Positions 2,731 to 18,511 of a stretch of 64,000 bases of DNA are shown in pieces. The stretch comes from an uncultured Clostridium sp. (lineage in GTDB: Bacteria; Bacillota; Clostridia; TANB77; CAG-508): assembly GCA_900554175.1 (NCBI GenBank), contig USGK01000004.1, positions 1,957-65,956 of the forward strand, written 5' to 3'. How positions within the stretch are numbered: position 1 is the stretch's first letter; the number at the start of each line of letters is the position of its first letter. A model generated the notes under the pieces. That model was given only the letters and a program-made list of their open reading frames with translations, ran no database searches and was not told the DNA's origin. The translations under genes and the position numbers were made by a program.

Positions 2731-3819
2731 TTATTTCTTTTCTTTCACCTTTTTCAATAATTCTTTTAAGCTAATTGGTTTAAAACCAATTACATCTACT
2801 GAAACATTAATATGTAATTTTTCAGAATATAAATCTTCTGGATATTCCATTTCATTTGTTTCAGGATTTATTTTATGTAATGGATTATTATGAATATGTC
2901 CATGAACATTCACATATCCTTTAGGTATTTCTGTATCTTTTAAAGGCTTATGAGATAATATTAATTTTTCATTATTTAATTTTAATGGATTCTCAGGTAT
3001 AAATCCAAATCCTACATTTCTGAAAAATTCTTTAGATTTTTTATCATGATTTCCTCTTATTAAAAACTTTTTACCTTTTAATTTTGGTATTAATTCTTTC
3101 ATATCACTTTCGCTTGTTAATGCTACATCTCCTAAATGGAAAACTGTATCAAAGTCGGTAACTGTATTATTCCAATTTTCAATCAAAACTCTATTCATTT
3201 CTTCTACATCTTTAAATGGTCTATTGCAATATTTAATAATATTTTTATGATTGAAATGTGTATCTGATATAAAATATGTTTTTGCATTTTTTAATCCCTT
3301 ATAATATTCAAATATATCTGTGATTTCTTTTCCTCCAAAATACCTTTTATAATCATCTTTTTCGTTTTCTTTCCACCACTCAAATTTTTCTTTAATTTTA
3401 TTTCTTATTTCTCTAGTGTCTATATCCGAATTTTCCTCAATTGCAAATAAAACATCTATGTTATCACTTCCACAAATTATAAAATCATAATTTCTTATTT
3501 CATCATATCCATATTTATCTTTTACTTTTTCTATTTTTTTATCATAAGAAATGTATAAATAATCATCTTTAAATAAATGATTTTCTTTAATATATGTATA
3601 ATATAAATCTTTTACACCTGAAGTTTTTACAAATCCTGTCATATACCATATTGTTCTGCTTCGGATCTCTGTATAATCTTTTGGTAAATCTTCTTTTTTA
3701 ATTTTAGTATGATATCTTCCTTTTGAATATAGAAATTCGTTTTCAGTATCAAGTGTATTTCTCCAATTCTTTCTATCAAATTTACCTTTTGTATACCAAT
3801 TAGATTTTATTCTTGCCAT
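2731..3819 (-). CDS. two-domain protein: unknown N-terminal ~190 aa plus C-terminal metallophosphoesterase
   Basis: The C-terminal half carries SDTHFNH, LGD, GNHD and HGHIH. The N-terminal half has no recognisable motif. It lies 14 nt upstream of the next phosphoesterase gene. Confidence 0.8.
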   Translation of the reverse strand: MARIKSNWYTKGKFDRKNWRNTLDTENEFLYSKGRYHTKIKKEDLPKDYTEIRSRTIWYMTGFVKTSGVKDLYYTYIKENHLFKDDYLYISYDKKIEKVKDKYGYDEIRNYDFIICGSDNIDVLFAIEENSDIDTREIRNKIKEKFEWWKENEKDDYKRYFGGKEITDIFEYYKGLKNAKTYFISDTHFNHKNIIKYCNRPFKDVEEMNRVLIENWNNTVTDFDTVFHLGDVALTSESDMKELIPKLKGKKFLIRGNHDKKSKEFFRNVGFGFIPENPLKLNNEKLILSHKPLKDTEIPKGYVNVHGHIHNNPLHKINPETNEMEYPEDLYSEKLHINVSVDVIGFKPISLKELLKKVKEKK

Positions 3820-3926
3820 ATCATTCTTCCCCCTTCGGATTATTTATGTTTGTTTTTCGATATTATTATGTTTATTTTTTGAACATTGTATTGTAAAATA
3901 TTAGGCAGATTTCTCTGCCTTAAATA

Positions 3927-4353: not shown

Positions 4354-5385
4354 TCAATGTACACACTCTTTTGCATTAATATCAAAAATTCTACACCCGC
4401 CATGACAAATATTAAAATAATTACATTTATTGCAATTATTATTATTTATCTTTTCTCTAATTACTCTAAATTCTTTACCGTCTCTCCAAACATCTTCAAT
4501 ATTCCTTTTATGTAGATCTTCCCCTTTAATTTTATTAATCATAAAAGAACATGGATACATCTTCATTTCCTCTGAAATAAATGCTGAAAATCTGCCTGCT
4601 TCACAAAAATCTACACTTTCTACATTTAAATCATTAATTTCTTTTACTAAGAAAGAAATTGCACAACTATCAAATCCTACTTTAAAAGGTAATGTTTTAT
4701 GATTTATTATATGAAAAAAATCACTTAATTTTTCAGTATTTTTTAAATTATATATATCATATTCTTTTTGTGGTTTATAATTCAGAAAAATTATTGCATT
4801 AATACCTTCAATTTCTTGTGGTAATTCATCTAATATTTTAATAGCTTTATCAATAGTTTTAGAGTTCAATATAAAATGTATATTTGTTTTTATTTTATTA
4901 TTAATAAGTTTCCTTATAGCTTTGAATGATTCCGTATATGGTTCATATAAACTTACTGCAACAGCACCACAAAATTCTTGACTTGCTTTTAGTACTTCTT
5001 CTGTTAACCCTCTTCCATTTGTTGTATATGATGGAATAATTCCAAACTCACGAGTTATTTTTACTAATTCTATAAAATTAGGATGTTGATTAGGATTTCC
5101 TCCTCCAAGAGCTACTTGCATAACTCCTAAGTCGCTTGCCTGTTTTATAATATTTTTATAATTCTCTATACTCATATGCTTGCCATTTACATTTGATTTT
5201 CTATAGCAAAAATCGCAGTTGTTTTCGCAATAATTTGTTATAGATATATCAAGCAATTCTGGACCTTCTAATCTCATAAATGGATCTATTCCATCATATC
5301 CATTTCTCATCATAAAACCATTTTTCTTATTAAAGATACAATAATATTTACTTTTCTTATTATTCTTTATTATATATCTGTTCAT
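4354..5385 (-). CDS. radical SAM enzyme with C-terminal SPASM/twitch-like Cys cluster
   Basis: CX3CX2C (ITNYCENNCDFCY) near residue 50, plus a C-terminal Cys-rich CNKCNYFNICHGGC. Confidence 0.85.
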   Translation of the reverse strand: MNRYIIKNNKKSKYYCIFNKKNGFMMRNGYDGIDPFMRLEGPELLDISITNYCENNCDFCYRKSNVNGKHMSIENYKNIIKQASDLGVMQVALGGGNPNQHPNFIELVKITREFGIIPSYTTNGRGLTEEVLKASQEFCGAVAVSLYEPYTESFKAIRKLINNKIKTNIHFILNSKTIDKAIKILDELPQEIEGINAIIFLNYKPQKEYDIYNLKNTEKLSDFFHIINHKTLPFKVGFDSCAISFLVKEINDLNVESVDFCEAGRFSAFISEEMKMYPCSFMINKIKGEDLHKRNIEDVWRDGKEFRVIREKINNNNCNKCNYFNICHGGCRIFDINAKECVH

Positions 5386-5802
5386 TAAATTTCACCTATT
5401 TCTCCATTCAGATAAAAATCATCTTCTACTATTAAAAAACTTTCCATACTAAAAAAAGCTTCTGTTTCTGTTCCTCCATTATCTGTACTCAAATTTCCCC
5501 AATATACATGATGTCCGTTTTTTTATATGTTCTTCTACTTTTTTTATTGTATCTTCCTCAAAATGTTCACTTTCTAAAAATTCTCTAATACTTTTTCCTT
5601 TTCCATATCTTTTAACATACTCAACTAAGTCTTCTTTAGCTTCATCTATAGCTTTAAATAATTCATCAAATATAAAATTTAATTTTGAATTACCTTGCAC
5701 CCCTATTTTATTCATAAATAACTTCTTTGAAAGTTCATCTTTAGATGCCAGTATAAAAGATGTTGAAGAACTATTAGTTACAAAATCTGTTTTTATTTTC
5801 AT
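5385..5802 (-). CDS. hypothetical protein, 107 aa in the zero frame, 138 aa if a +1 shift occurs at in-frame CGG (rc of 5515-5517)
   Basis: N-terminus MKIKTDFVTNSSSTSFI. Skipping the C of CGG continues as GHHVYWGNLSTDNGGTETEAFFSMESFLIVEDDFYLNGEIGEI. That reading ends at a TAA (5385-5387) overlapping the radical-SAM ATG (TAATG). Confidence 0.5.
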
Positions 5803-6212
5803 TTATCTAACCTCGCTATCAATATATTAAAATTCTTTATTAAATTTTCGTCATACTTAAAATAATAAGAAATGTTATAACTATTACTGTCTATATTCAA
5901 TTTGTATAAACTATAATCTTCATTACAATGTTTTATTAATCTCTTTATCTCATTATTATTTAACAACTCTTTATTATATAAATATTTTTCAAAACTTTCA
6001 TATTCCTGCATATAATACTTTGTATACATTTCTTTCATATCAACATAACCTGTAAATACACAATTATAAATTTTCTTTAAATATTTTTCTGCAAATGAAT
6101 TTTCTCTTACTTTAGATAATTTTAAAAATCTTTCTAAATATGTATTAAAATCAATATTATTAGGAGCTATACAATAAAAATCTTCACCAATTTTAATAAT
6201 CTTCATTGCCAT
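5799..6212 (-). CDS. hypothetical protein (137 aa, Tyr/Asn-rich)
   Basis: Its start overlaps the end of the protease-NTPase gene by 20 nt. Its stop overlaps the next start (ATGA). No motif recognised. Confidence 0.55.
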   Translation of the reverse strand: MAMKIIKIGEDFYCIAPNNIDFNTYLERFLKLSKVRENSFAEKYLKKIYNCVFTGYVDMKEMYTKYYMQEYESFEKYLYNKELLNNNEIKRLIKHCNEDYSLYKLNIDSNSYNISYYFKYDENLIKNFNILIARLDK

Positions 6213-8997
6213 CCTCCTTTTTCTTTAAATATTTTAATAATTCTTCTGAAATAGTATTTTTTTCTATTTTTGTATTGTTTTTATTATAAATCATTTGTAT
6301 TTTATCTTTAATCTCTTTCTTTTGTATTATATTTCTAGAAATTATATGATTCACAATATCCTTTATATTTTTATTAACTTCTTCTGGTACATTATTATTC
6401 ATCTCATCTAACGTTTCAATTGCCATATCTGGTAAATATTTTATATAAAGTTCCCAAAATTCATCTGTCTTCCATCTAATCACATTATATAAATAAATAG
6501 TTATCTTAAATAATTCTTTATAAATTCTCGAATTTTTTCTTCTCAGTGTGGATTTTAAGTTTTCAATCATTTTGTCATATGGCCATATTGCCTTAATGCC
6601 ATAACTATAATAATTATTAGAAAAATCTGGTTGAAATTTTGTTCTTATAAAGCTCTGGTATTTTTCATAATCTTTTTTACAAAATGAATCCATTATATTA
6701 TATAAATTTTTTATATTTAATTTTTTAAAATAAGAGATATCATATCTAAAAATTAAATCTAATATGATTTCATCCCTATTTTCACCATCATTTAAAAATT
6801 CATTTTTTATTATTCCAATATCTTCATCACTTATCTTTTCGTCAACTAAGTTAAATATATTATCCCAATAAACTATATTATAATCATCACTTGTTTTTAA
6901 TATTTCAACTAAGTCTTCACTATACATTCTTCCGATAAAGAACAAATAACCATATACACCTTCTTTAATGCTAACATTGGACTTTTTATTTAAATCTTTG
7001 ATAAATTTTTCTATCTGCTCTTTGTTAAACTTTCTTGCTATATACTTAGCCATATAAAAATCCCTAAATTCATCAAATGTGAAACTAATAACCGTTTTCT
7101 GTTCATTCAAAAAACCTTCTTTTATGATTATATCATCTTTTAAAACAACATCATTTAATATTAATTCATGCACTAATTCCAACTCTTCACTATTTAGAAT
7201 ATCTATAGGTATATTATAATACTGGCAATTATTAATCATATAATCTATTATTTTATCCAAAACATTAATATATAATTTTCCTGCTCCAAATTTTTTATTA
7301 TCATATTCCTCTATTTTCTTATCAATATACATTTGAAATGTATTGTACTTATAGATATCATACATATATAGCTGTTTTTTTCCTCTATTAGCTTCGCAAA
7401 AAAATCTTAACAGCAATGTGTCTCTAGATAATCTATCAAAAATATTTTTAGATAAGCTATACTTTCTTATTGTTATATCAAAAAAATTCAAATATCCCCA
7501 AAATATTCTGTCTTGAAAGACTTGGTTATAATTAAACATTTTAACTCTTTTAAAATACTTAGAATATATTCCTGTATCTATATTTTTAAATTTTTCATCA
7601 TAAAATTCACCTCTTGTTGTCATAATAACCTTTATAAAATTAAATCCATCAATTCTTTCTAAAAATCGCCTTACTACATTAGAAAAATCATCAAATTTAT
7701 TGTTTTCATTTAAACCATCTATTACTATTACAAATGGTTTAAATGTTTTTTCATATTCCTGTTTTAGCATATCTAAAATATATTCTATATTTTTATTATT
7801 TAAAAAACTAATAATTTTATCGCATACAAATTCATATAAATCTTTATCTACTTCATAAGCATTTATGTATAATACATAAAAATTCTTTTTTAATAAAAAA
7901 TTTTTTGTAAAGTCACAAATAAAATTAGTTTTACCTTGTCCTGCTCCATTTGTAAGAATCAAATATCTGTACCTTATATATTCTATATTTTCTTGAATAT
8001 CACTAAAATCAAATTGTAAAGCTCTATTGTAATAATCTCTTGTTTCTCTATCATAAAGATCCAATCCACTCTCTAATAGCTCTTTCATTTGATTTTTATC
8101 TTCGATAAGTTTTCTAGCTTTTTTAAGATCTTCTGATAATTCTTCTGAAGCCTTTAATAGTTCTTCATCATTTTCTATTTTATCTGTAATTCTAAAATTA
8201 ATAGTATCGCTAAAATTTTTCTTTAAAAACTCATTAACATCCTTATAATTCAATGATTGTATTTCATCTATTGCTTTATTTATAAACAATTTTGGCTCTG
8301 AAAAAAATCTCATATATTCTTTAAAATTATTTTGCTCTACAAATATTTCTGGAATATATTTACCACTTTTTATATTCTTTTGTATTTGTTGCTTTGTATA
8401 TATATCCATTTTTTGTTTAAAACTTTTTTTTATTCTATTAGATTCAATATATCTTTCATTAATGTATTGTACAAATGACGATACACTAGATACTTTAATT
8501 TCACTTGCCCTATCTGCTGAAATTCTTTGTTCTTGTACAATTCCTATTATCATTTCATCTACAATTACTGGTGAACCTGACAAACCTTTGTAGTTTATTG
8601 CTTGTCCAACACTTATATTAGATGCCTGCATATCAGAAATTCTTTCTTCTTCAATTATACTATGAGTTCCTATACCTTTAATATAATGCATTATCTGTTC
8701 TTTAGTTATATATCCATATATTTCCCATTTATCATCTTCATTTGGAGTATAATCTTGAGTCAATAAATGATTAATGTTCTCATTAACTGGCCTTTCTAGT
8801 TTTAAAAGTCCTATAATTTCATTGTCGTTATTTGGATATTCTTTAGCTTTCAAAATGTCCCCATTATGTAATTCAATTTTATATTCTTCTTGATGCATTA
8901 AATGACTTGCTGTTAATATTAAATCATTATCTATTAAAATCCCTGTTCCTACATCACTGGTTCCAATTATTTTTACTATATACTTAGGAAATTCCAT
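6193..8997 (-). CDS. trypsin-like serine protease fused to a NACHT/STAND-type P-loop NTPase with a long helical C-terminal region
   Basis: The N-terminus has S1-like catalytic contexts TASHL (His) and GLSGSPV (Ser). The centre has Walker A GAGQGKT and a NACHT-like Walker B FVIVIDGLNE. About 450 aa of helical tail follow. Confidence 0.8.
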   Translation of the reverse strand: MEFPKYIVKIIGTSDVGTGILIDNDLILTASHLMHQEEYKIELHNGDILKAKEYPNNDNEIIGLLKLERPVNENINHLLTQDYTPNEDDKWEIYGYITKEQIMHYIKGIGTHSIIEEERISDMQASNISVGQAINYKGLSGSPVIVDEMIIGIVQEQRISADRASEIKVSSVSSFVQYINERYIESNRIKKSFKQKMDIYTKQQIQKNIKSGKYIPEIFVEQNNFKEYMRFFSEPKLFINKAIDEIQSLNYKDVNEFLKKNFSDTINFRITDKIENDEELLKASEELSEDLKKARKLIEDKNQMKELLESGLDLYDRETRDYYNRALQFDFSDIQENIEYIRYRYLILTNGAGQGKTNFICDFTKNFLLKKNFYVLYINAYEVDKDLYEFVCDKIISFLNNKNIEYILDMLKQEYEKTFKPFVIVIDGLNENNKFDDFSNVVRRFLERIDGFNFIKVIMTTRGEFYDEKFKNIDTGIYSKYFKRVKMFNYNQVFQDRIFWGYLNFFDITIRKYSLSKNIFDRLSRDTLLLRFFCEANRGKKQLYMYDIYKYNTFQMYIDKKIEEYDNKKFGAGKLYINVLDKIIDYMINNCQYYNIPIDILNSEELELVHELILNDVVLKDDIIIKEGFLNEQKTVISFTFDEFRDFYMAKYIARKFNKEQIEKFIKDLNKKSNVSIKEGVYGYLFFIGRMYSEDLVEILKTSDDYNIVYWDNIFNLVDEKISDEDIGIIKNEFLNDGENRDEIILDLIFRYDISYFKKLNIKNLYNIMDSFCKKDYEKYQSFIRTKFQPDFSNNYYSYGIKAIWPYDKMIENLKSTLRRKNSRIYKELFKITIYLYNVIRWKTDEFWELYIKYLPDMAIETLDEMNNNVPEEVNKNIKDIVNHIISRNIIQKKEIKDKIQMIYNKNNTKIEKNTISEELLKYLKKKEDGNEDY

Positions 8998-9009
8998 ACA
9001 TTTCTCCTT

Positions 9010-10173
9010 TTAAATTATTAATTCGTTACTAATAATACATTCATAATTATATTTATTTTTTTCTTCTTCTTCTTTTAGTATTCGTATATTATCTATGTCA
9101 TAATTAAAAATAAGTTTTTTATTATTTTTATTATTTATTATAATATCAGCTAATATGCTTTTGTCTGGATGTCCATATTTTTTTCCATCTGTAGATATGA
9201 TATAATTACTAGCAATAATATTTTCCATTATTTCACGATTATTCCAATAACTTCCGTGATGAGGAATTTTTAGAATGTCAACCTTAAGTATTTTCTCAAT
9301 GTTATGCTTTTTTTCAAAATATAAATCTCCTGTAAATACCATTTTAATATCATTAAATTTTATTAGGATACCTATTGATACATCGTTAACTATAGAATAT
9401 ATACGTTTTTTATGATTAAGCTTTAACCAGTTTATAATATCTCTGTCTATCTGATCAGATATTGTTTCTGTAGTTTCAATACATTCTTCATTATTTAACA
9501 TCAACGTTTCAAAAAAATCTATAAATTTTTCACTTTTATTAATCTCATAGTCTTTTCCAAATAATACTTCTAATTGTTTCTCTAGATATTTGGTATATCT
9601 TTCTATTTTTAATTTACTTGGTGAAATTACATCTATAATGGCATTTCCCATCTTTATATTTTCAGTTTGTACTACTATGTTATCTATAAACTGTATATTT
9701 ATTGGATAATTTAACTTATTACAAATATATTCAAAAGATTTTAAGTCATTTGCACTTACATAATTGTTGTCTTCATCAAAAGAATCCATTTCATTATATG
9801 CTTTTATTATTCGCATTTTTTTTAATTGTCTTTGATTTATATTATTAGATAACTTCTTTTGAAAAACTAAATTTTTAAAGCCATTAAACCATATATTTTC
9901 AATTTTTATAATATTTGGATTATTATAATCACCATTTTCTTCTAGCAACCTTTTTGCTCCACCAATATGATCCTTATCAATATGAGTTATTACTAATAAA
10001 GTAATCTTTTTTCCTATTTTTTTCAATTCTATAAGTAATGGCTTTAAATAATTATAATACGTTTCTTTAAATCCTGTATCAATTAATATACATTCATTAT
10101 TATTAAATTCAATTAAAAAACAATCCCCTGCATTCGCTGGTAAAATATGAATTTTAGCATTCCAATCTGCCAT
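9010..10173 (-). CDS. MBL-fold metallo-hydrolase (ComEC-type beta-lactamase fold)
   Basis: ITHIDKDHIGGA is an HxDxDH variant of HxHxDH. A C-terminal PHHGS and GHPD are also present. The gene ends 12 nt before the protease-NTPase start. Confidence 0.8.
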   Translation of the reverse strand: MADWNAKIHILPANAGDCFLIEFNNNECILIDTGFKETYYNYLKPLLIELKKIGKKITLLVITHIDKDHIGGAKRLLEENGDYNNPNIIKIENIWFNGFKNLVFQKKLSNNINQRQLKKMRIIKAYNEMDSFDEDNNYVSANDLKSFEYICNKLNYPINIQFIDNIVVQTENIKMGNAIIDVISPSKLKIERYTKYLEKQLEVLFGKDYEINKSEKFIDFFETLMLNNEECIETTETISDQIDRDIINWLKLNHKKRIYSIVNDVSIGILIKFNDIKMVFTGDLYFEKKHNIEKILKVDILKIPHHGSYWNNREIMENIIASNYIISTDGKKYGHPDKSILADIIINNKNNKKLIFNYDIDNIRILKEEEEKNKYNYECIISNELII

Positions 10174-10234
10174 ACATAATCAATTCCTTTCTAAAAAGTT
10201 ACAGAAAACATATAGTATAACTAATATAAGCTTT

Positions 10235-11371
10235 TTATTTTTCATGACTTTTAAAATAATTATAAGCTTTAACTAGACAATATAATTCTCTAATGTTCGA
10301 AATATTAGCATTAAAAGGTTTAATTCTATCACTAAAATGATTAATCAATATCATTTCCATATCTTCATTATTCCAATACTCATATAATTTAGTATAATAG
10401 TAACTTGAATTTTTAGTAAAATATTCTACTTTACTATCTATAATATTTTCAACCTCATTTATGTTTTCTACTTTTTCAGGATTTTGTAACGCATTATATA
10501 AATATGGTATTTGATTAATTAATACATTTTTAAACTTTTCATACAATTTCCTATTTTGTTTATCTGTTATTTTTGTATTTAATAACATTTTTACATCTTT
10601 TATTGCAACATTATATCTACCATTTAATCTTTTTTCATCTTCTTTTATTAAAACATTTAATTGTTTAATAGGCTTATCTATTTTTTGTATTTTTATTTTC
10701 GATAATTCTTTTTTATATGCATTGATCATTACTAAAAAATCATTATAAATATTATCTAAATAATTAATACATTTATCCAAGTACTTTTCTATATCTTTAA
10801 AGCTAAATCCGAATTCGAGTTGCTCCCATGATTTTTTCTTATCTTTTTTCCATAGCAATGTATAATAATCCCAATTTTTTACTTTTCCATAAAGTTTATC
10901 AGGCAAAGAATTATATGGAGTTGGATAAGTTGAAACAATAAATTCATTATTATCTTTAAGCTTTGTTGGATGTGCTCCAAAAATAGCTCTAATATTTTTA
11001 AAGTGCTCCCAATCATCCTTTTCTTTATCTTTAAAAATTTCACTACTTTTATAAAACAGTCTAGCTTTTTCATTATCTTTCGCTATTTTGTTAATATCGT
11101 TTATTCCTTCAATAACTATATCAACCGATGAAAGAAATAAATAAACTTCTCCCCAATTATAATCTTCTTTATTTTCTTTTAACAAATTCTCACTATTTAG
11201 ATAACTCTCAACTGTTCTAAACCAGTGTACTGCTGAACAAATAATATTCCATTTGTCATCAGAGTATTTTTTATCGAGCACTAATAAAATATCATCTTGT
11301 TTTTCACCATTAATAAATTCACTTAAGCAATTTAGTTTTCTTAATCTTTCCTCATACTTCATTTGGCACAC
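10235..11371 (-). CDS. hypothetical helical protein (378 aa), possible HEPN-like Rx5H motif
   Basis: NIRAIFGAHPT fits Rx4-6H. No other motif recognised. Its start overlaps the upstream gene by 20 nt. Confidence 0.5.
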   Translation of the reverse strand: MCQMKYEERLRKLNCLSEFINGEKQDDILLVLDKKYSDDKWNIICSAVHWFRTVESYLNSENLLKENKEDYNWGEVYLFLSSVDIVIEGINDINKIAKDNEKARLFYKSSEIFKDKEKDDWEHFKNIRAIFGAHPTKLKDNNEFIVSTYPTPYNSLPDKLYGKVKNWDYYTLLWKKDKKKSWEQLEFGFSFKDIEKYLDKCINYLDNIYNDFLVMINAYKKELSKIKIQKIDKPIKQLNVLIKEDEKRLNGRYNVAIKDVKMLLNTKITDKQNRKLYEKFKNVLINQIPYLYNALQNPEKVENINEVENIIDSKVEYFTKNSSYYYTKLYEYWNNEDMEMILINHFSDRIKPFNANISNIRELYCLVKAYNYFKSHEK

Positions 11372-12341
11372 ACCCTTGTTTTAAAAAACTTTCTAAAAAT
11401 TCAATAACAGCAACTGGATTTTCTTTTATAATCTTATCCAATTTTTTCATTTCTTCTTGAAGTTGTTTTAAATCATTATTACTTTGTTTAATATAATCCT
11501 TATTTATATCTTCATATAGTAAACCACTATACCTACTTAAGTATTCTTTTGTATATTTTTCTCTATTAATATCTGATATTAAAATATACCATCCTACAAA
11601 CATATACTCATATCCAATTGAATTACAATCATCATTAGTAATATACTTTAAACAACAATTCAATAAAACTTCTAAAAAGTACATATTTTGTTTGGCTATC
11701 ATTAAAAATAAATCCTCATCATTATTCAAAGTACCTTCAACCATTTCATTTACAACTAAAGTACTGTGTGTAAATAAACATAACTTATCATAATACTCAT
11801 CTAACAACTTCTGAATCTGCCTATTACTCATATCTCCAAACATGTCTTTATCTATCATTTTTAATTTTGCTTTAAAAAGATTTCTAAGTTTTTGCTGTTT
11901 AGTATAAAATCTATCTTCATCTCTCAATCCTAATTTTTTAAATTCTTCATATACGTTAGAATCTAAATATATCATCATTCCCATAACAAGATTTTCAAAA
12001 GCAGATCTTATTAATGTGTTTGAATCTACTAGACTATTATTTTTAACTAATTTTTGCACATTCTTTATAGTCATGTATGATTGATTTAACAAATTACAAC
12101 TTTCTTTAGGCAAGTTCTTATCATCCATTAAATATAATTTTTTAATATTTTTACTAGTACTTCTTCTTAAAGGAACTATGCATTTGCTTTTACAAAGATT
12201 TCTAAAAATTTTCTTTAATTCAATTAATCGATCTTTAGTTAAAAATTCCAATAGTTTATATAATTTTTCTTCCCTATTTTCAGTACCAAGTGTATTTAAA
12301 ATATCTTCTGCTGTTATATCTATTTCATTATCTTTTCTCAA
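11352..12341 (-). CDS. hypothetical helical protein (329 aa)
   Basis: TTG start with AAGGAG 8 nt upstream. No firm motif (IRSAFENLV ... LCLFTHST). First gene after the res terminator-like hairpin. Confidence 0.5.
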   Translation of the reverse strand: MRKDNEIDITAEDILNTLGTENREEKLYKLLEFLTKDRLIELKKIFRNLCKSKCIVPLRRSTSKNIKKLYLMDDKNLPKESCNLLNQSYMTIKNVQKLVKNNSLVDSNTLIRSAFENLVMGMMIYLDSNVYEEFKKLGLRDEDRFYTKQQKLRNLFKAKLKMIDKDMFGDMSNRQIQKLLDEYYDKLCLFTHSTLVVNEMVEGTLNNDEDLFLMIAKQNMYFLEVLLNCCLKYITNDDCNSIGYEYMFVGWYILISDINREKYTKEYLSRYSGLLYEDINKDYIKQSNNDLKQLQEEMKKLDKIIKENPVAVIEFLESFLKQGCVPNEV

Positions 12342-12414: not shown

Positions 12415-15030
12415 TTATAAATTACTAATCCACTTATCTATTGCTTCTCCAAATTCTTTTCTACGATACTCCTCATTGTAAAATGGCAATCCTATTATCT
12501 TATATTCGTTTCCATAATCAAACATTGGATTAGTATATGCATTTTCTTCCATTTCTAACATAAACTCCTCTTTCCATTTATCTTCTTCTAACAGATTATT
12601 TCCTTTAGGCTCAGCATATATTTGATGTGTAATATAATTATCGTTTGTTTTCTTCCTAACAAATAATAAGAAATCTGGTTCAAATCTTTCACCATGTTCA
12701 AAACTGTATATTGCTAAATCTGAAATTCTTTCATTTCTTACTATATAATATTCTAATCCTTTTTCTTTCAATTTTGGTTCAATGTCAGTTTTAAAATATT
12801 TTATAAATAGTTTTTCTTCACTTGTACCATAATTATCATTAAATACATACCATGGTTCATTTGTTAGATCAAGTTTGTACTCTGTATTTCTGCAATTATT
12901 TTGGGAGTCACCTTTTCCACCATTTTCATCTATTTTTGATAAGTATATCACCTTATCCTTTAGCACTGCTTTAAGTTGCATTGGTTCAAATTGTTTAGTG
13001 CCTTCAAATTCCTGCTTAATTGATGTCACATGATTTGAAATATTATTGAAAGCTCTTATACAAGCATTTCTCAAATCTTTTCCCTTAATATCATTTAAAT
13101 ATGTAATTTCAATAACTGAATTTCCAAGATATTCGTCAGATGTTAAGAATTCTTTCATTGTCTTAACATTAGGGTATTTACTTTTTATAACATTGAATTT
13201 TAACTCATTATATCTTTCTGCAGCCCCAATCAAAATATTATAATCGATATCTTTAAACTTAAATGTACTAATTTTGCTTTCAATATTTAATTCATTATTT
13301 ATGTTTTCTCCCATTAAAGCAAACACGTTTCCCTGATTTGATTTTACGGTATATCTATATACCTTATTTTTTATACTATCCTCAATGTCAATAACATCTT
13401 TTCTGTCCTTAGGAATACGTTTATTGGCATATACTAATGCTTTATTATAAAATTGTGATTCTTTAAATTCTTCCTTCAATTTATATTCTAGCTTTATTGG
13501 ATCCTTATCTTGTAACCCTGTTTGTATTAATGCTTGTCTTAATTCTGCTATATATTTAGAATCATTTCTACTGTGGAAAAACATAGTTTCTAATATTCTC
13601 AATTCATTTGATAAATCATTATCATATTTTCTTTTATATTTTTCTTGTTCTTCGTTTATTTTAAAAGGACAATATCTTGCCCCACGTCCTATTAGCTGTG
13701 CTTCTTTTATTGTGTAATTTCCAATTTTACCAGCAGTTCCACTTCCTTGTCTGGTATCATATAGTCTAACAATATCAAACAAATTTAAAACATCCCAACC
13801 TTCATTAAGCATATCTACAGTAAATATAACACGTATTGGATTATCTTTATCTTCCAAGGAATTAACTAATAATTGTTTTTCTCTATTATTATCCGTAGTT
13901 TCATTCATGATTATTGCTGTTTCTTTTGTAAATGAATTTTGTATACTATGTTCTAATAATTCAAATGTCGAATCTTTACTTTTAAAATAATCTAAAGCTT
14001 TATTTAATATTTCAATATTGGAATTGTATAAATTCATTAATTCATAGCTATTTAATTTTTCCAAATTATTAAAGAAAACATCATAGAATTCTTTTGATTC
14101 TTTTATTTTTTGAGATTTTAACATTACTACAGGTTTCAAATTAATCTTATTATCATTGAAAAGATATTTTCTATATTCGCTTAATACGAGAGCCATTAAT
14201 GTTCTATCCCACAATTCACTTTCTGTAGCAAAGTTTTGAAAATCCTTAGTATATCCACTTTCTCTAAAATTCTTTAATGGATAATTATAAATTATTTTAT
14301 CCCTATATTTGACTTCAACATTTCTATCCTTTAAATCAGCTGTTGCTGTGAATTCAAGCATTATACTATCTCTATTTTGAGCTAGTGCATTTGTAACAGA
14401 ATATTCCCAACTATTTCTTTCGTTTTCTTCTGTTTTGGTTTCTTTTTTGGTAAGCGTATTTATATGATGACTTTCATCTGAAATAAATACTATTTTATTA
14501 TCCTCAAAATCTTTATATGTAAGTGCATTTTCTCTAGCTGTGAATAAATCCAAATGTAATTTCTGTGTTGTTGTAAAACAAATTTGTATATCCTCTTCTA
14601 ATGGATCTACACTAAAATTTTCTACTTTTTTTATTTTTATTTTATTTCCTAAATAACTAATCTCCTCTGAAAAAAGATATTTGCTAGATGCTGTATCTGT
14701 AAAGTTATCTATTGTTTTTTCTACAACATTAGATTGATTTACAAAGAAAAGAAACTTTCTATATCCTTTTGTATATAAATAAAGCATTAATCCTGCCATA
14801 ATAACAGTTTTTCCACTTCCTGTTGCCATATGAAAAAGAGTATGTTTTTGCTTGTTCTTATGAATATTTTCATTTTCAAAATAAGTTACAAAATATTTAA
14901 GTGCAGAAATTTGATAATCACGTAAAACTATATTATCAGATAATCCCTCGTTTATTATAGTTGGCAATTCATTAAGCATTCCCATTTCTTCTAATACTTC
15001 TATTGTTTCATATAAATATTTATTTTCCAT
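12415..15030 (-). CDS. res: Type III restriction enzyme Res subunit (SF2 helicase plus C-terminal PD-(D/E)xK)
   Basis: Walker A MATGSGKT, DEAH-type box ISDESHH, and a C-terminal EPDF...AEPKG nuclease-like motif. It starts 5 nt after mod. Confidence 0.9.
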   Translation of the reverse strand: MENKYLYETIEVLEEMGMLNELPTIINEGLSDNIVLRDYQISALKYFVTYFENENIHKNKQKHTLFHMATGSGKTVIMAGLMLYLYTKGYRKFLFFVNQSNVVEKTIDNFTDTASSKYLFSEEISYLGNKIKIKKVENFSVDPLEEDIQICFTTTQKLHLDLFTARENALTYKDFEDNKIVFISDESHHINTLTKKETKTEENERNSWEYSVTNALAQNRDSIMLEFTATADLKDRNVEVKYRDKIIYNYPLKNFRESGYTKDFQNFATESELWDRTLMALVLSEYRKYLFNDNKINLKPVVMLKSQKIKESKEFYDVFFNNLEKLNSYELMNLYNSNIEILNKALDYFKSKDSTFELLEHSIQNSFTKETAIIMNETTDNNREKQLLVNSLEDKDNPIRVIFTVDMLNEGWDVLNLFDIVRLYDTRQGSGTAGKIGNYTIKEAQLIGRGARYCPFKINEEQEKYKRKYDNDLSNELRILETMFFHSRNDSKYIAELRQALIQTGLQDKDPIKLEYKLKEEFKESQFYNKALVYANKRIPKDRKDVIDIEDSIKNKVYRYTVKSNQGNVFALMGENINNELNIESKISTFKFKDIDYNILIGAAERYNELKFNVIKSKYPNVKTMKEFLTSDEYLGNSVIEITYLNDIKGKDLRNACIRAFNNISNHVTSIKQEFEGTKQFEPMQLKAVLKDKVIYLSKIDENGGKGDSQNNCRNTEYKLDLTNEPWYVFNDNYGTSEEKLFIKYFKTDIEPKLKEKGLEYYIVRNERISDLAIYSFEHGERFEPDFLLFVRKKTNDNYITHQIYAEPKGNNLLEEDKWKEEFMLEMEENAYTNPMFDYGNEYKIIGLPFYNEEYRRKEFGEAIDKWISNL

Positions 15031-17128: not shown

Positions 17129-18511
17129 TTATCTCACTTTTTTCTTATTCTTCACTTTTTCCTTCTCATTCTGCTTATTCCACTTTTCTTCCTCAATAAA
17201 CTTAATCTCCTCTAATATTTTATTAGTTCTCTCAATTATATCATCACAATAAAACAATTCTCTTTTCACATTTTTAATTATATCAGTTACTTTTATAATA
17301 TCTTCAGTAACAGAATCTTTTTCAATTCCTCCATCTAAAGCTTTTCTTTTATAATAAAGTCTATTCCTCTCATTATATAAATTCTTTAACTCATCTTGCT
17401 TTGATTCTCTATGCTTTCTAACATCGTCCAAAGTTTTCAATTTATATTTACAAAGCATCTTAGCTTCAGCAGAATATTGATCTAATCTCTTTACTTCTCG
17501 TCTCATCTCTGGAGACATCTTATATTGTAATTGTTTCCTTGGGTAAACTTTTAACAAAAAACAATAGTACTTATACAATGCTATCAATCCTTTAGGTTTA
17601 TACAGATTTTTAGCATGTCCATAATAGGTAAACTTCCTTGCTGGAATTGTTGCAACAAAATTTACTTTTTCGTATTCTCTCCATGGATTTATATCAAAAA
17701 TAATATGTCTAATATTATCCATAGAATATTCTTCTCCAAATCTTCTTTCTACTCTTATATTTCTTTTATATGGTTCTTTTCTTATACTTAATTTACCTGC
17801 TCGATAATAGTATTTATATCCCATAGAAGATAATATTTTTTCAAATTGTCTTTGACTTAGTGCATGGTTTATTGCATAATCTAAATCTTCTTTTGCAAAT
17901 TGAATATATTCAGATTCTTTTGTACTTTTCTTATAATAATTTTCAAAATTTATTCCAGATTTACAAGTCTTCTCTTCTAAAACACTTAATCCATATTCTT
18001 CACAAAGTTCATCAGAAGTTTTTCTAAGTAGTGCCGTATTTTCTCTATTGCTATAATACTTTTTTCCATCTTTAAATGAAACTGAATTTAGTACAAAATG
18101 ATTATGAATATGATCTGTATTCAAATGAGTTGTAACTACAACTTGAAATCTATCTCCCCACATTTCATTAGCAAGTTTTACTCCAATTTCATGAGCAAGT
18201 TCTGGGGTAACTTCTCCTTCTTTAAAAGATTGTTCACCATGAAAAGCAAGTATGCCATCTGTCTTTCCATTTATTATTTTTACAAGTTCCATTTCTTTTG
18301 CTGCATCTTCTGCTTTACAATTTATACCTGTCACATAAAATTGTTTTTCAGTTTTATCTGCATTTGTTGCATACATCAAAACATCTCTTACATTTTCAAA
18401 TTTATCCATTCCAAATTCATAACAATCGTTTTTAGTTTTCTCTTTATTTTTTATATAATTTATTGCATTATCTATTCTTGATTCCACCTTCCAAATTTTT
18501 GTTGTCGCCAT
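17129..18511 (-). CDS. mobilisation relaxase (MobA/VirD2-type relaxase domain)
   Basis: N-terminal relaxase domain with histidine triad context TTHLNTDHIHNHFVLN. C-terminal coiled-coil, Lys-rich tail. Confidence 0.85.
   Translation of the reverse strand: MATTKIWKVESRIDNAINYIKNKEKTKNDCYEFGMDKFENVRDVLMYATNADKTEKQFYVTGINCKAEDAAKEMELVKIINGKTDGILAFHGEQSFKEGEVTPELAHEIGVKLANEMWGDRFQVVVTTHLNTDHIHNHFVLNSVSFKDGKKYYSNRENTALLRKTSDELCEEYGLSVLEEKTCKSGINFENYYKKSTKESEYIQFAKEDLDYAINHALSQRQFEKILSSMGYKYYYRAGKLSIRKEPYKRNIRVERRFGEEYSMDNIRHIIFDINPWREYEKVNFVATIPARKFTYYGHAKNLYKPKGLIALYKYYCFLLKVYPRKQLQYKMSPEMRREVKRLDQYSAEAKMLCKYKLKTLDDVRKHRESKQDELKNLYNERNRLYYKRKALDGGIEKDSVTEDIIKVTDIIKNVKRELFYCDDIIERTNKILEEIKFIEEEKWNKQNEKEKVKNKKKVR

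Follow-up and report, generated by a model that had tools for sequence, protein, structure and literature searches.

The window analyzed here is a 64,000-nucleotide stretch of DNA from an uncultured Clostridium sp. (GenBank assembly GCA_900554175.1, contig USGK01000004.1, positions 1,957 to 65,956 of the forward strand), with a G+C content of about 25%. At positions 4354 to 12341 it carries seven densely packed minus-strand genes, which an initial annotation had regarded as a candidate composite defense system with a STAND NTPase at its center. ORF calling recovered all seven open reading frames (ORFs) at the coordinates originally given, and the packing was as described, with overlaps of 20 nucleotides (nt) between g1 and g2, 20 nt between the STAND gene and g5, and 4 nt between g5 and g6, and with a gap of 12 nt between the metallo-beta-lactamase (MBL) gene and the STAND gene. 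The description of the sixth gene as encoding either 107 or 138 amino acids (aa) was also correct, in that the 107-aa ORF stops at 5479 and the next frame is open to a TAA codon at 5385 to 5387; in this +1 reading, g6 overlaps the ATG of g7 by 1 nt. The assignments of Lactamase_B, Trypsin, and Radical_SAM plus SPASM domains were reproduced with Pfam. The features are as follows.

11352..12341, minus strand: g1, 329 aa, TTG start (ORF call)
10235..11371, minus strand: g2, 378 aa, GTG start, 20-nt overlap with g1 (ORF call)
9010..10173, minus strand: MBL-fold metallo-hydrolase, 387 aa, Avs1a/LmuA-like (Pfam Lactamase_B, 3.6e-14)
6193..8997, minus strand: whole protease-STAND gene, 934 aa
8428..8997, minus strand: effector domain at the N terminus of the STAND protein, a trypsin-like serine protease, about aa 1-190 (Pfam Trypsin, 9e-6)
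6193..8427, minus strand: helical bundle, NACHT-like NTPase, and C-terminal domain of the STAND protein, about aa 191-934
5799..6212, minus strand: g5, small protein, 137 aa, core component and g6 paralogue
5479..5802, minus strand: g6 as read in the window, 107 aa, a shortened reading of a 138-aa core protein
5385..5524, minus strand: g6 frameshift site (run of seven A residues at 5518-5524) and out-of-frame remainder (5385-5516)
4354..5385, minus strand: g7, radical SAM/SPASM enzyme, 343 aa, core component

The five genes from 4354 to 10173 constitute one unit, built on a four-gene core that consists of the NACHT-like STAND NTPase, g5, g6, and the radical SAM/SPASM enzyme. The idea of a composite defense system therefore stands for these five genes and not for g1 and g2, which belong to a separate module. 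All seven products were scanned against PADLOC, NCBIfam, Pfam, and PHROGs, and no PADLOC, NCBIfam, or Pfam model covered the block, as had been anticipated for a system not yet cataloged. Except for a subthreshold match of g1 to DUF5677, no model in the four databases was matched by g1, g2, g5, or g6, and PDB sequence-profile searches with the same four proteins returned nothing significant. For the remaining products, the matches were either generic or below threshold.

A conserved four-gene core around the STAND NTPase

Relatives of the STAND protein were collected from one genome per GTDB species, the best 80 of 154 relatives' loci were kept, the window proteins were located in the loci by tblastn, and 15 STAND homologues were aligned. 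In this STAND-anchored scan, 69 loci extended far enough downstream, and 67 of them had g6 and the radical SAM gene. The synteny was broken in one locus (L074) with a related STAND gene that lacks the trio and in another (L068) with a 49-aa g6 remnant (12688-12837) and a shortened STAND gene. A metagenome scan anchored on the g6 profile gave the same picture from the opposite direction, with a STAND gene upstream and a radical SAM gene downstream in all 50 loci with enough flank. The order and strand of the core genes were identical in 133 of 133 complete loci, and the genes overlap or nearly abut. The core was found in more than 12 phyla, including Firmicutes, Bacteroidota, Alphaproteobacteria, Campylobacterota, Chloroflexi, and Nitrospirae, as well as Cyanobacteria, Planctomycetes, Acidobacteria, Verrucomicrobia, Desulfobacterota, and others. 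Comparative genomics thus supported the placement of the STAND protein as the hub of the block, and the small proteins and the radical SAM/SPASM enzyme, which could have been a neighboring cluster for a peptide synthesized ribosomally and modified after translation (RiPP), proved to be its most faithfully linked partners. The distribution of the operon is sporadic, with mobile elements, plasmids, and restriction-modification (R-M) genes among its surroundings. The system is present on Agrobacterium and Rhizobium plasmids, and in a Rhizobium locus the RefSeq names are "SMEK domain-containing protein," "hypothetical protein" (twice), and "radical SAM protein."

The NTPase of the STAND protein carries a Walker A motif (GQGKT, 353-357) and a Walker B motif (DGLNE, 427-431), both of which are invariant, and relatives match PF05729 NACHT, NPHP3_N, and nSTAND1/3 near the thresholds. 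Judged by these motifs and by a NACHT-type architecture of the nucleotide-binding oligomerization domain, the protein is predicted to belong to the NACHT clade. It matched Avs2 in PADLOC (9e-17, aa 239-670) and the solved Avs2 structure 9o4e in the PDB (3.5e-10, aa 238-464), and it scored 31 bits against the Avs2 model NF041813, whose cutoff is 1000. The protease domain matched Spl, HtrA, and V8 proteases in PDB profile searches, and His32 and the motif G138-x-S140-G141-x-P143 are invariant (alignment A1); its PADLOC and NCBIfam matches to Avs1b were restricted to aa 7-207. In other phyla, the N-terminal effector is swapped for PNP_UDP, SMEK_N, transmembrane (TM)-like, or unassigned domains. 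STAND proteins of the family span approximately 740 to 1080 aa. The C-terminal region, about 260 aa, is free of repeats and alignable across phyla to approximately aa 885 with 91 to 100% occupancy. It is therefore likelier to bind a conserved internal partner than diverse phage proteins.

The MBL gene lies directly 5' of the STAND gene in 46 loci, every one of them protease type, and the MBL gene and the trypsin domain are confined to this one clade, mostly Firmicutes. The MBL protein matched LmuA (3e-66), Avs1a (8.5e-53), and RTasMBL (5e-39) in PADLOC and scored 244 bits against the NCBIfam Avs1a model (NF041809; cutoff, 420). By sequence, it is a clear homologue of the defense-associated MBL family, related to Avs1a as a homologue and not as an equivalog. 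A faint match to Anti-Pycsar_Apyc1 (PF23023) in precomputed Pfam and a PHROGs match to phrog_7043, a "tail protein" family (6e-25), were also observed, which suggests that the same MBL fold is employed on the host and phage sides.

Genes g1 and g2 (10235-12341) are a lineage-restricted passenger module outside the conserved system. The sole family match of g1 in the Pfam scan was the subthreshold one to DUF5677; the gene was detected only in the L001, L002, L081, and L221-L227 relatives and had no detectable relatives among the plasmids or viral contigs searched. The pair is confined to the closest clade and is missing from L003 and L225, whose STAND proteins are 70 to 73% identical to that of the window, as well as from about 150 related, more distant loci; its position is taken by a Type I HsdR gene in L003 and by an SLFN-like helicase in L225. 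Moreover, the g2 and g1 proteins of L081 are 99% and 94% identical to those of the window, versus 81 to 87% for the five downstream genes, and these discordant identities indicated a recombination seam between g2 and the MBL gene. Homologues of g2 with 30% identity were found on 29 plasmids of Gammaproteobacteria, mostly enterobacteria, including 22 conjugative plasmids; they are lone "hypothetical protein" genes beside AbiH-family and PIN-domain genes, and an example is found on E. coli plasmid pTB-nb3 (L161, NZ_CP033634.1, 4893-5981). When co-occurrence was mapped, then, independent assortment was seen for g1 and g2 and not for the other five genes. The suggestion of one functional unit or two fused ones resolves in favor of two units, with the seam upstream of the MBL gene rather than between the STAND and radical SAM genes. 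The view that all seven genes make up one composite defense system can draw on the tight one-strand packing, on the position of the sole predicted terminator after the XRE gene, and on the company that g1 and g2 keep with the five genes in the window and the relatives named above. However, it must contend with the absence of the pair from L003, L225, and the more distant loci, the discordant L081 identities, the solitary g2-like plasmid genes, and the HsdR gene at the same position in L003, and we regard it as quite improbable.

Directly 3' of the radical SAM gene in 32 protease-type loci lies a gene of about 300 aa whose product has a C-terminal M1E1E6-like "integron cassette protein" domain (for example, L004:14616-15536, L009:14596-15534, and L014:14572-15477, in addition to 29 other loci). 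It is not found in the window or its clade, and comparison ruled it out as a displaced g1 or g2.

The g5/g6/g7 module and its phage-borne counterparts

Intact g6 orthologues of 131 to 142 aa lie between g5 and the radical SAM gene in about 130 loci and begin with the motif MK[IV][KR]xDF[VI][TS]NSSS[TS]SF, which takes the form MKIKxDFVTNSSSTSF in the window. Residues N10, S11, S12, and T14 are invariant across alignments A2 and A4 and a set of 373 sequences, S13 is invariant in A2 and present in 93% of the 373 sequences, and G34 is invariant or nearly so. At the other end of the protein, Cys118 is present in 89% of the 373 sequences and a C-terminal Trp is the last residue in 87%, with both occurring together in 312 of 373. 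We considered the GG[WY]-COOH tail as a glycyl-radical site and dismissed the idea, since conservation of the GG does not extend beyond Firmicutes. An AlphaFold2 (AF2) model of a repaired g6 (P0219) had a mean predicted local distance difference test score (pLDDT) of 86 and a predicted template modeling score (pTM) of 0.81, with residues 1-10 disordered, and Foldseek found no match to it with an E value of <0.2 in the PDB or BFVD. When the g6 profile was run against 1.84 billion cluster representatives, 347 g6-like clusters were recovered at an E value of <=1e-10 and 1877 at <=1e-3; the family size is thus about 350 clusters at 50% identity under the stricter threshold.

The hallmark of g5 is a helix motif common to orthologues, EYxxYYxxEYxSFxxFLY, and F29, F53, Y66, Y67, E70, and Y71 are invariant in alignment A5. 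The AF2 model of g5 (pLDDT, 87; pTM, 0.81) gave no PDB fold match with an E value of <0.2 in Foldseek. When the g5 and g6 family profiles were compared with hhalign, they aligned over 102 columns at 98.3% probability (E value, 1.8e-14), and the two AF2 models present their secondary-structure elements in the same order; by profile comparison, g5 and g6 are paralogues. No precomputed Pfam match was found for about 160 g5/g6 homologues, and neither protein gave a PqqD match in Pfam or a winged helix-turn-helix fold match in Foldseek. As modeled, g5 and g6 represent new protein families with no matching known fold, and the phage counterpart described below was unexpected.

In the window, g6 is frameshifted by one extra A, with seven A residues at 5518-5524 compared to six in the near-identical intact protein P0219, and intact relatives encode a single 138-aa g6. 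The out-of-frame remainder (5385-5516) encodes the conserved C-terminal 31 residues (...FFSMESFLIVEDDFYLNGEIGEI). The seven-A allele was found in all six contigs with the window's STAND protein and also in L001, L002, L223, L226, and L227, whose STAND proteins are 84 to 93% identical; the gene is intact in L081, L225, and L003. Between the window and L223, the out-of-frame tail differs by six substitutions. Read in the ancestral frame, three of these are synonymous, and the other three restore residues seen in intact relatives. These comparisons hint that the tail is still under selection, with numbers too small to decide. Judged from the sequence and from what is generally known of slippage, the g6 frame would not be regained by a -1 slip on the A AAA AAA heptamer and would be regained by transcriptional slippage that drops one A. 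Given the frameshift, the window copy may therefore be impaired, weakly expressed via slippage, or phase-variable.

The g7 protein matched Radical_SAM (2e-17) and SPASM (5e-5) in Pfam, with SPASM and TIGR04085 above their cutoffs. The best NCBIfam matches were to MftC, NirJ2, WgkB, AhbD, and PqqE, with the KxxxW (streptide) maturase next, and every one of these scores was far below its cutoff. The closest solved structure was that of SuiB (5v1q, 1.6e-12), for which aa 45-337 of g7 aligned with SuiB 129-445; the alignment begins past the RiPP recognition element (RRE) of SuiB, and g7 is predicted to have no RRE domain of its own. Cys53, Cys57, and Cys60 (CxxxCxxC) and Cys241, -261, -279, -318, -321, -327, -331, and -341 are conserved in 98 to 100% of 66 orthologues, and identity across phyla is 43 to 54%. 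With its CxxxCxxC motif and SPASM cysteines, g7 falls, as far as its sequence goes, within the class of radical SAM/SPASM protein or peptide maturases. The g6 gene is always directly upstream of g7, abutting or overlapping it. Weak matches of g7 to prokaryotic viperin (pVip) and viperin models were found in PADLOC and NCBIfam, the NF038283 score being 43 bits against a cutoff of 180 and covering the generic radical SAM core only. At the extreme N terminus (aa 1-45, 5251-5385), a conserved beta-hairpin-like motif, YxxxFNxxTGxFxR, precedes CxxxCxxC; it occurs in orthologues and in the phage KP15 enzyme considered below, and it could provide the N-terminal strand of g6 with a minimal site for docking.

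A scan of IMG/VR with the g6 profile recovered complete STAND systems on 5 contigs and, in addition, 53 phage-type loci (L167-L219), many of them on contigs of 200 to 550 kb and some beside genes for a large terminase, tail-fibre-like proteins, or DNA ligase. These loci contain tandem arrays of 2 to 11 small ORFs of 83 to 230 aa (a few are single copy; 163 unique sequences in total), for example, L169:4749-11002, L172:3120-8360, and L179:6395-9426. All that these ORFs have in common is the N-terminal motif of g6, MKIKxDF[VI]TNSSS[TS]SF, and some end in GGY; the invariance of N-S-S among the motif-matched phage ORFs is by construction of the search pattern. They matched no Pfam model and gave only weak matches to phrog_7397. 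A g7-like radical SAM/SPASM gene lies within the flank in 17 of the 53 loci, in several of them directly upstream of the array, and no STAND gene was found in any of the 53. The phage loci are therefore a recurrence of the link between g7-type and g6-type genes in an independent genetic context, and of the evidence gathered in this analysis, the recurrence argues most strongly for a functional relation between the two, most simply that of enzyme and substrate. On an enzyme-substrate reading, the N-terminal motif of g6 would most simply be the site of recognition or modification.

Matches to g7 extended to the uncharacterized family phrog_7293 (3e-31). A g7-like radical SAM/SPASM protein with 27% identity, mostly annotated as "hypothetical," is present in about 168 cultured T4-like phages that infect Klebsiella, Enterobacter, Cronobacter, and related hosts. 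In Klebsiella phage KP15 (L220, NC_014036.1), no motif-bearing small proteins are encoded beside the g7-like gene (5908-7110), and no match to a phage g6-like query was obtained among cultured phages.

Comparison with known defense and maturation systems

Full-text literature on NACHT, STAND, or nucleotide-binding leucine-rich repeat (NLR) proteins together with radical SAM/SPASM enzymes yielded only the Fxs concept and the KpAvs2-Avap paper. The KpAvs2 operon, consisting of Avs2, Avap1 (radical SAM), and Avap2 (DUF6375), provides abortive-infection defense in E. coli (Bechon et al. 2024, Nat Commun, PMC11564622). Defense at full strength depends on the accessory proteins. Avap2 binds constitutively to the helical bundle of KpAvs2 between the effector and the NTPase, Avap1 is required against phage T2, and approximately 5% of Avs2 genes have Avap partners (PMC11564622). 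Like the present core, the KpAvs2 operon combines a STAND NTPase bearing an N-terminal effector with a radical SAM protein and a small accessory protein; moreover, the NTPase and helical bundle of the window protein are nearest to those of Avs2, with the Walker A Lys at K356 here and K337 in KpAvs2. The two differ in that KpAvs2 has a long C-terminal domain for recognition of pathogen-associated molecular patterns (the 9o4e chain is 1484 aa) where the present family has a short conserved C terminus, in the linkage to the radical SAM gene (about 100% here versus about 5% of Avs2 homologues), in the number of small proteins (two paralogues here versus one DUF6375 protein), and in the effectors, which are a protease, PNP, SMEK, or TM domain here and an Mrr nuclease there. 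PF19902 (DUF6375) was not among the best 25 of the 46 Pfam families listed for 62 g5/g6 sequences at E values up to 10. A tblastn search of plasmids with g7 for an Avap1-type gene returned only a lone Tn3-borne radical SAM gene in E. coli, and Avs2-fragment matches on Vibrio, Burkholderia, and Bacillus plasmids had no radical SAM neighbor. Compared by the published descriptions of Avap1 and Avap2, KpAvs2-Avap1-Avap2 is the closest validated relative of the system.

In Avs1 (AVAST type 1), too, an MBL-fold gene accompanies a STAND NTPase that carries a fused trypsin-like protease, and the MBL protein of the window is homologous to Avs1a. In the present family, however, the MBL-protease module belongs to only one clade, the STAND protein has 934 aa compared to a 1931-position Avs1b model, and only the protease domain resembles Avs1b (NF041810; 43.8 bits versus a cutoff of 1500, aa 8-177 only). 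None of the seven products matched Avs1c in PADLOC or NCBIfam. Membership in Lamassu was rejected, as only the MBL protein matches a model of that system (LmuA) and no LmuB or SMC gene lies in the block.

The nearest conceptual analogue is Fxs/VMAP-ternary, a computationally predicted conflict system composed of the FxsA peptide, the radical SAM/SPASM enzyme FxsB, and an AP-ATPase-tetratricopeptide repeat (TPR) protein (Kaur et al. 2020, eLife, PMC7159879). There, too, a STAND NTPase is linked to a radical SAM/SPASM enzyme, for which a gene-encoded peptide has been proposed as the target of modification. Fxs differs in having an AP-ATPase with TPRs and in sitting within vWA-MoxR ternary systems, in contrast to a NACHT/Avs2-like protein without TPRs here, and its substrate is a short protease-released FxSxx-COOH peptide, whereas the candidate substrate here is a folded 138-aa protein with an N-terminal NSSST. 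No Fxs model was among the best 25 of the 68 g7 matches listed, and no FxSxx tail was seen in the g6 alignments. With SuiB, MftC, PqqE, WgkB, and PapB, g7 shares the CxxxCxxC motif and a complete set of SPASM cysteines, aligning with SuiB over its full length; a candidate substrate gene lies directly upstream and is translationally coupled. Unlike those maturases, g7 has no RRE, a folded candidate substrate, no conserved leader peptidase or exporter, and a place in a STAND operon. The pVips also bring a radical SAM enzyme into anti-phage defense and account for weak hidden Markov model matches of g7, which differs from them in having a SPASM domain; to our knowledge, viperins are without SPASM domains and act alone on nucleoside triphosphates (NTPs). 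By the tests applied to its sequences, the block does not appear to be a member of Avs1, Avs2, viperin, Lamassu, or Fxs systems. Rather, the five genes are a probable new variant of STAND defense system with an obligate radical SAM protein-modification module.

Interpretation and genomic surroundings

STAND/NLR-like proteins are the best-understood bacterial pattern recognition receptors and are thought to sense phage proteins directly via long C-terminal repeats. The present family contrasts with this picture in its short conserved C terminus and its obligatory link to a radical SAM/SPASM enzyme and two paralogous small proteins. We consider it probable that the five genes are the version found in Firmicutes of a widespread four-gene conflict system, that this system most likely acts against phages by abortive infection, and that its g5/g6/g7 module controls the STAND protein. 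A role in defense or conflict as such appears likely in view of the swapping of effectors, the defense-island and mobile context, and the KpAvs2-Avap1-Avap2 precedent. That g6 is the substrate of g7 is a reading to which we lean slightly, and a coupling of the g5/g6/g7 module to STAND activation is what we infer from the whole.

In the proposed mechanism, the NACHT-like STAND protein would be an ATP-driven switch that, once activated, oligomerizes and frees its interchangeable N-terminal effector, in this case a trypsin-like protease that would act together with the adjacent Avs1a-like MBL hydrolase. Lacking a long repeat sensor, the protein would rely instead on the fixed three-protein module. 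The g7 enzyme would act on g6, recognizing or modifying its flexible, invariant N-terminal strand (KIKxDFVTNSSSTSF) and possibly also targeting the pair formed by Cys118 and the C-terminal Trp; the g5 paralogue might serve as a partner or chaperone, and the state of the g5/g6 complex, modified or not, would license or trigger the STAND switch. Specifically, a modification installed by radical SAM chemistry on a dedicated small protein (g6, with g5) might be the internal ligand or license of an NLR-like switch, an idea that we advance tentatively and consider rather unlikely. If it is true, a modified small protein as ligand or license would be a sensing logic that has not been described for any STAND/NLR protein. 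The phage modules, each with a g7-like radical SAM gene and up to 11 tandem, rapidly diversified motif-only proteins, could then belong to the same arms race, either by jamming the host module with substrate mimics or decoys or by being the activity that it detects.

Several points weigh against this interpretation. In the window's clade, g6 has lost both Cys118 and the C-terminal Trp; position 118 is occupied by Ser and the last position by Ile or Phe (for the repaired g6 of the window, Ser118 and Ile138), and one member keeps the Cys, paired with Tyr. Either Cys118 and the Trp are inessential, or the window's clade works differently. The joint loss is compatible with a functional Cys-Trp pair, but the evidence for such coupling is weak because the association is largely a single-clade event. 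The frameshift in the window and in its whole subclade could mean decay. As targets of g7, g5, a small molecule, or a phage component are alternatives to g6. The radical SAM protein of KpAvs2 is dispensable against some phages (PMC11564622). Finally, the PADLOC matches found among a random sample of 150 neighboring ORFs (the PtuA, AriA, mad3, and PDC families) are sampled counts without a background comparison.

Other explanations were weighed against the same data. In one, g7 is a small-molecule enzyme, viperin-like or signaling, that makes an antiviral compound or second messenger, and g5 and g6 are STAND-binding adaptors and not substrates. The weak viperin matches of g7 would fit, as would the small-molecule substrates of some SPASM/twitch enzymes (the NirJ, AhbD, and MoaA matches), the constitutive binding of Avap2 to KpAvs2, and the loss of Cys and Trp from g6 in the window's clade. 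However, the viperin match is confined to the generic radical SAM core at a score far from its cutoff, g7 has a full SPASM set of 7 to 8 cysteines, and the peptide cyclase SuiB is the solved structure that matches it best over the full length. Moreover, the phage g7-like enzymes with their multicopy motif-only proteins follow the pattern of one maturase with many substrates, and Bechon et al. did not detect nucleotides of the viperin type, nor did they see an NTP pocket in the Avap1 model (PMC11564622). We therefore judge this explanation unlikely. A role outside immunity, as a regulated RiPP, protein-derived-cofactor, or programmed-cell-death module whose STAND protein regulates or processes the radical SAM product (for instance, with the protease as leader peptidase), would account for a radical SAM/SPASM gene beside small conserved ORFs, which is a classic RiPP or cofactor signature (MftC, PqqE, and SuiB matches), and STAND NTPases do also serve as regulators. 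It appears improbable, since exchange of the effector among protease, nucleosidase, SMEK, and TM domains does not suit a leader peptidase or transcription factor, no transporter, immunity gene, or helix-turn-helix domain is conserved among the neighbors of the loci, g6 is modeled by AF2 as a folded 138-aa protein and not as a short peptide, the operon is distributed sporadically on mobile elements and plasmids next to R-M genes, and the homologous Avs2-radical SAM operon defends against phage (PMC11564622).

The block might also be a known Avs1 system beside an unrelated RiPP cluster, as Avs1a is matched by the MBL protein (2e-72) and Avs1b by the protease domain. Against this stand the scores, which are 244 versus a cutoff of 420 for Avs1a and 44 versus 1500 for Avs1b, the latter for the protease only, together with the missing Avs1c, the length of the STAND protein relative to the Avs1b model, and an NTPase that is nearer to Avs2. 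Above all, the synteny contradicts this reading, with the radical SAM trio strictly linked to this STAND family in both search directions, and it is very improbable.

Under the interpretation that we favor, the family offers a strictly conserved, tractable model for a question raised by KpAvs2, namely, the role of a radical SAM enzyme in NLR-type immunity. The work also defines a diagnostic g6 N-terminal motif, DF[VI][TS]NSSS[TS]SF, and a phage module that may be related. If the link between enzyme and substrate is real, this would be the first radical-mediated protein modification to control an immune NTPase and a new source of radical SAM chemistry on folded proteins.

The flanks of the block were as initially annotated, with a Type III R-M system, comprising Mod (N6_N4_Mtase plus TypeIII_RM_meth) and Res, upstream and an XRE gene at the other end. 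A Type I HsdR gene lies directly upstream of the system in 6 loci. A MobA/VirD2 relaxase is encoded at 17129-18511, and replication genes lie in the 17- to 20-kb region of the window. The hairpin placed downstream of res does exist as an inverted repeat with a T-run, but it is weak and was not reported by the terminator scan, which gave a single site for the region, at 3903-3920, downstream of XRE. A promoter scan was uninformative at 25% GC (79 sites versus 84 expected). Beyond XRE are genes for two calcineurin-like metallophosphoesterases (2731-3819 and 1949-2716) and for an AAA_14/DUF4143 ATPase (520-1800). These three genes accompany the block in L001, L002, and L221 and not in L081 or L003, and they may be further defense-island cargo.

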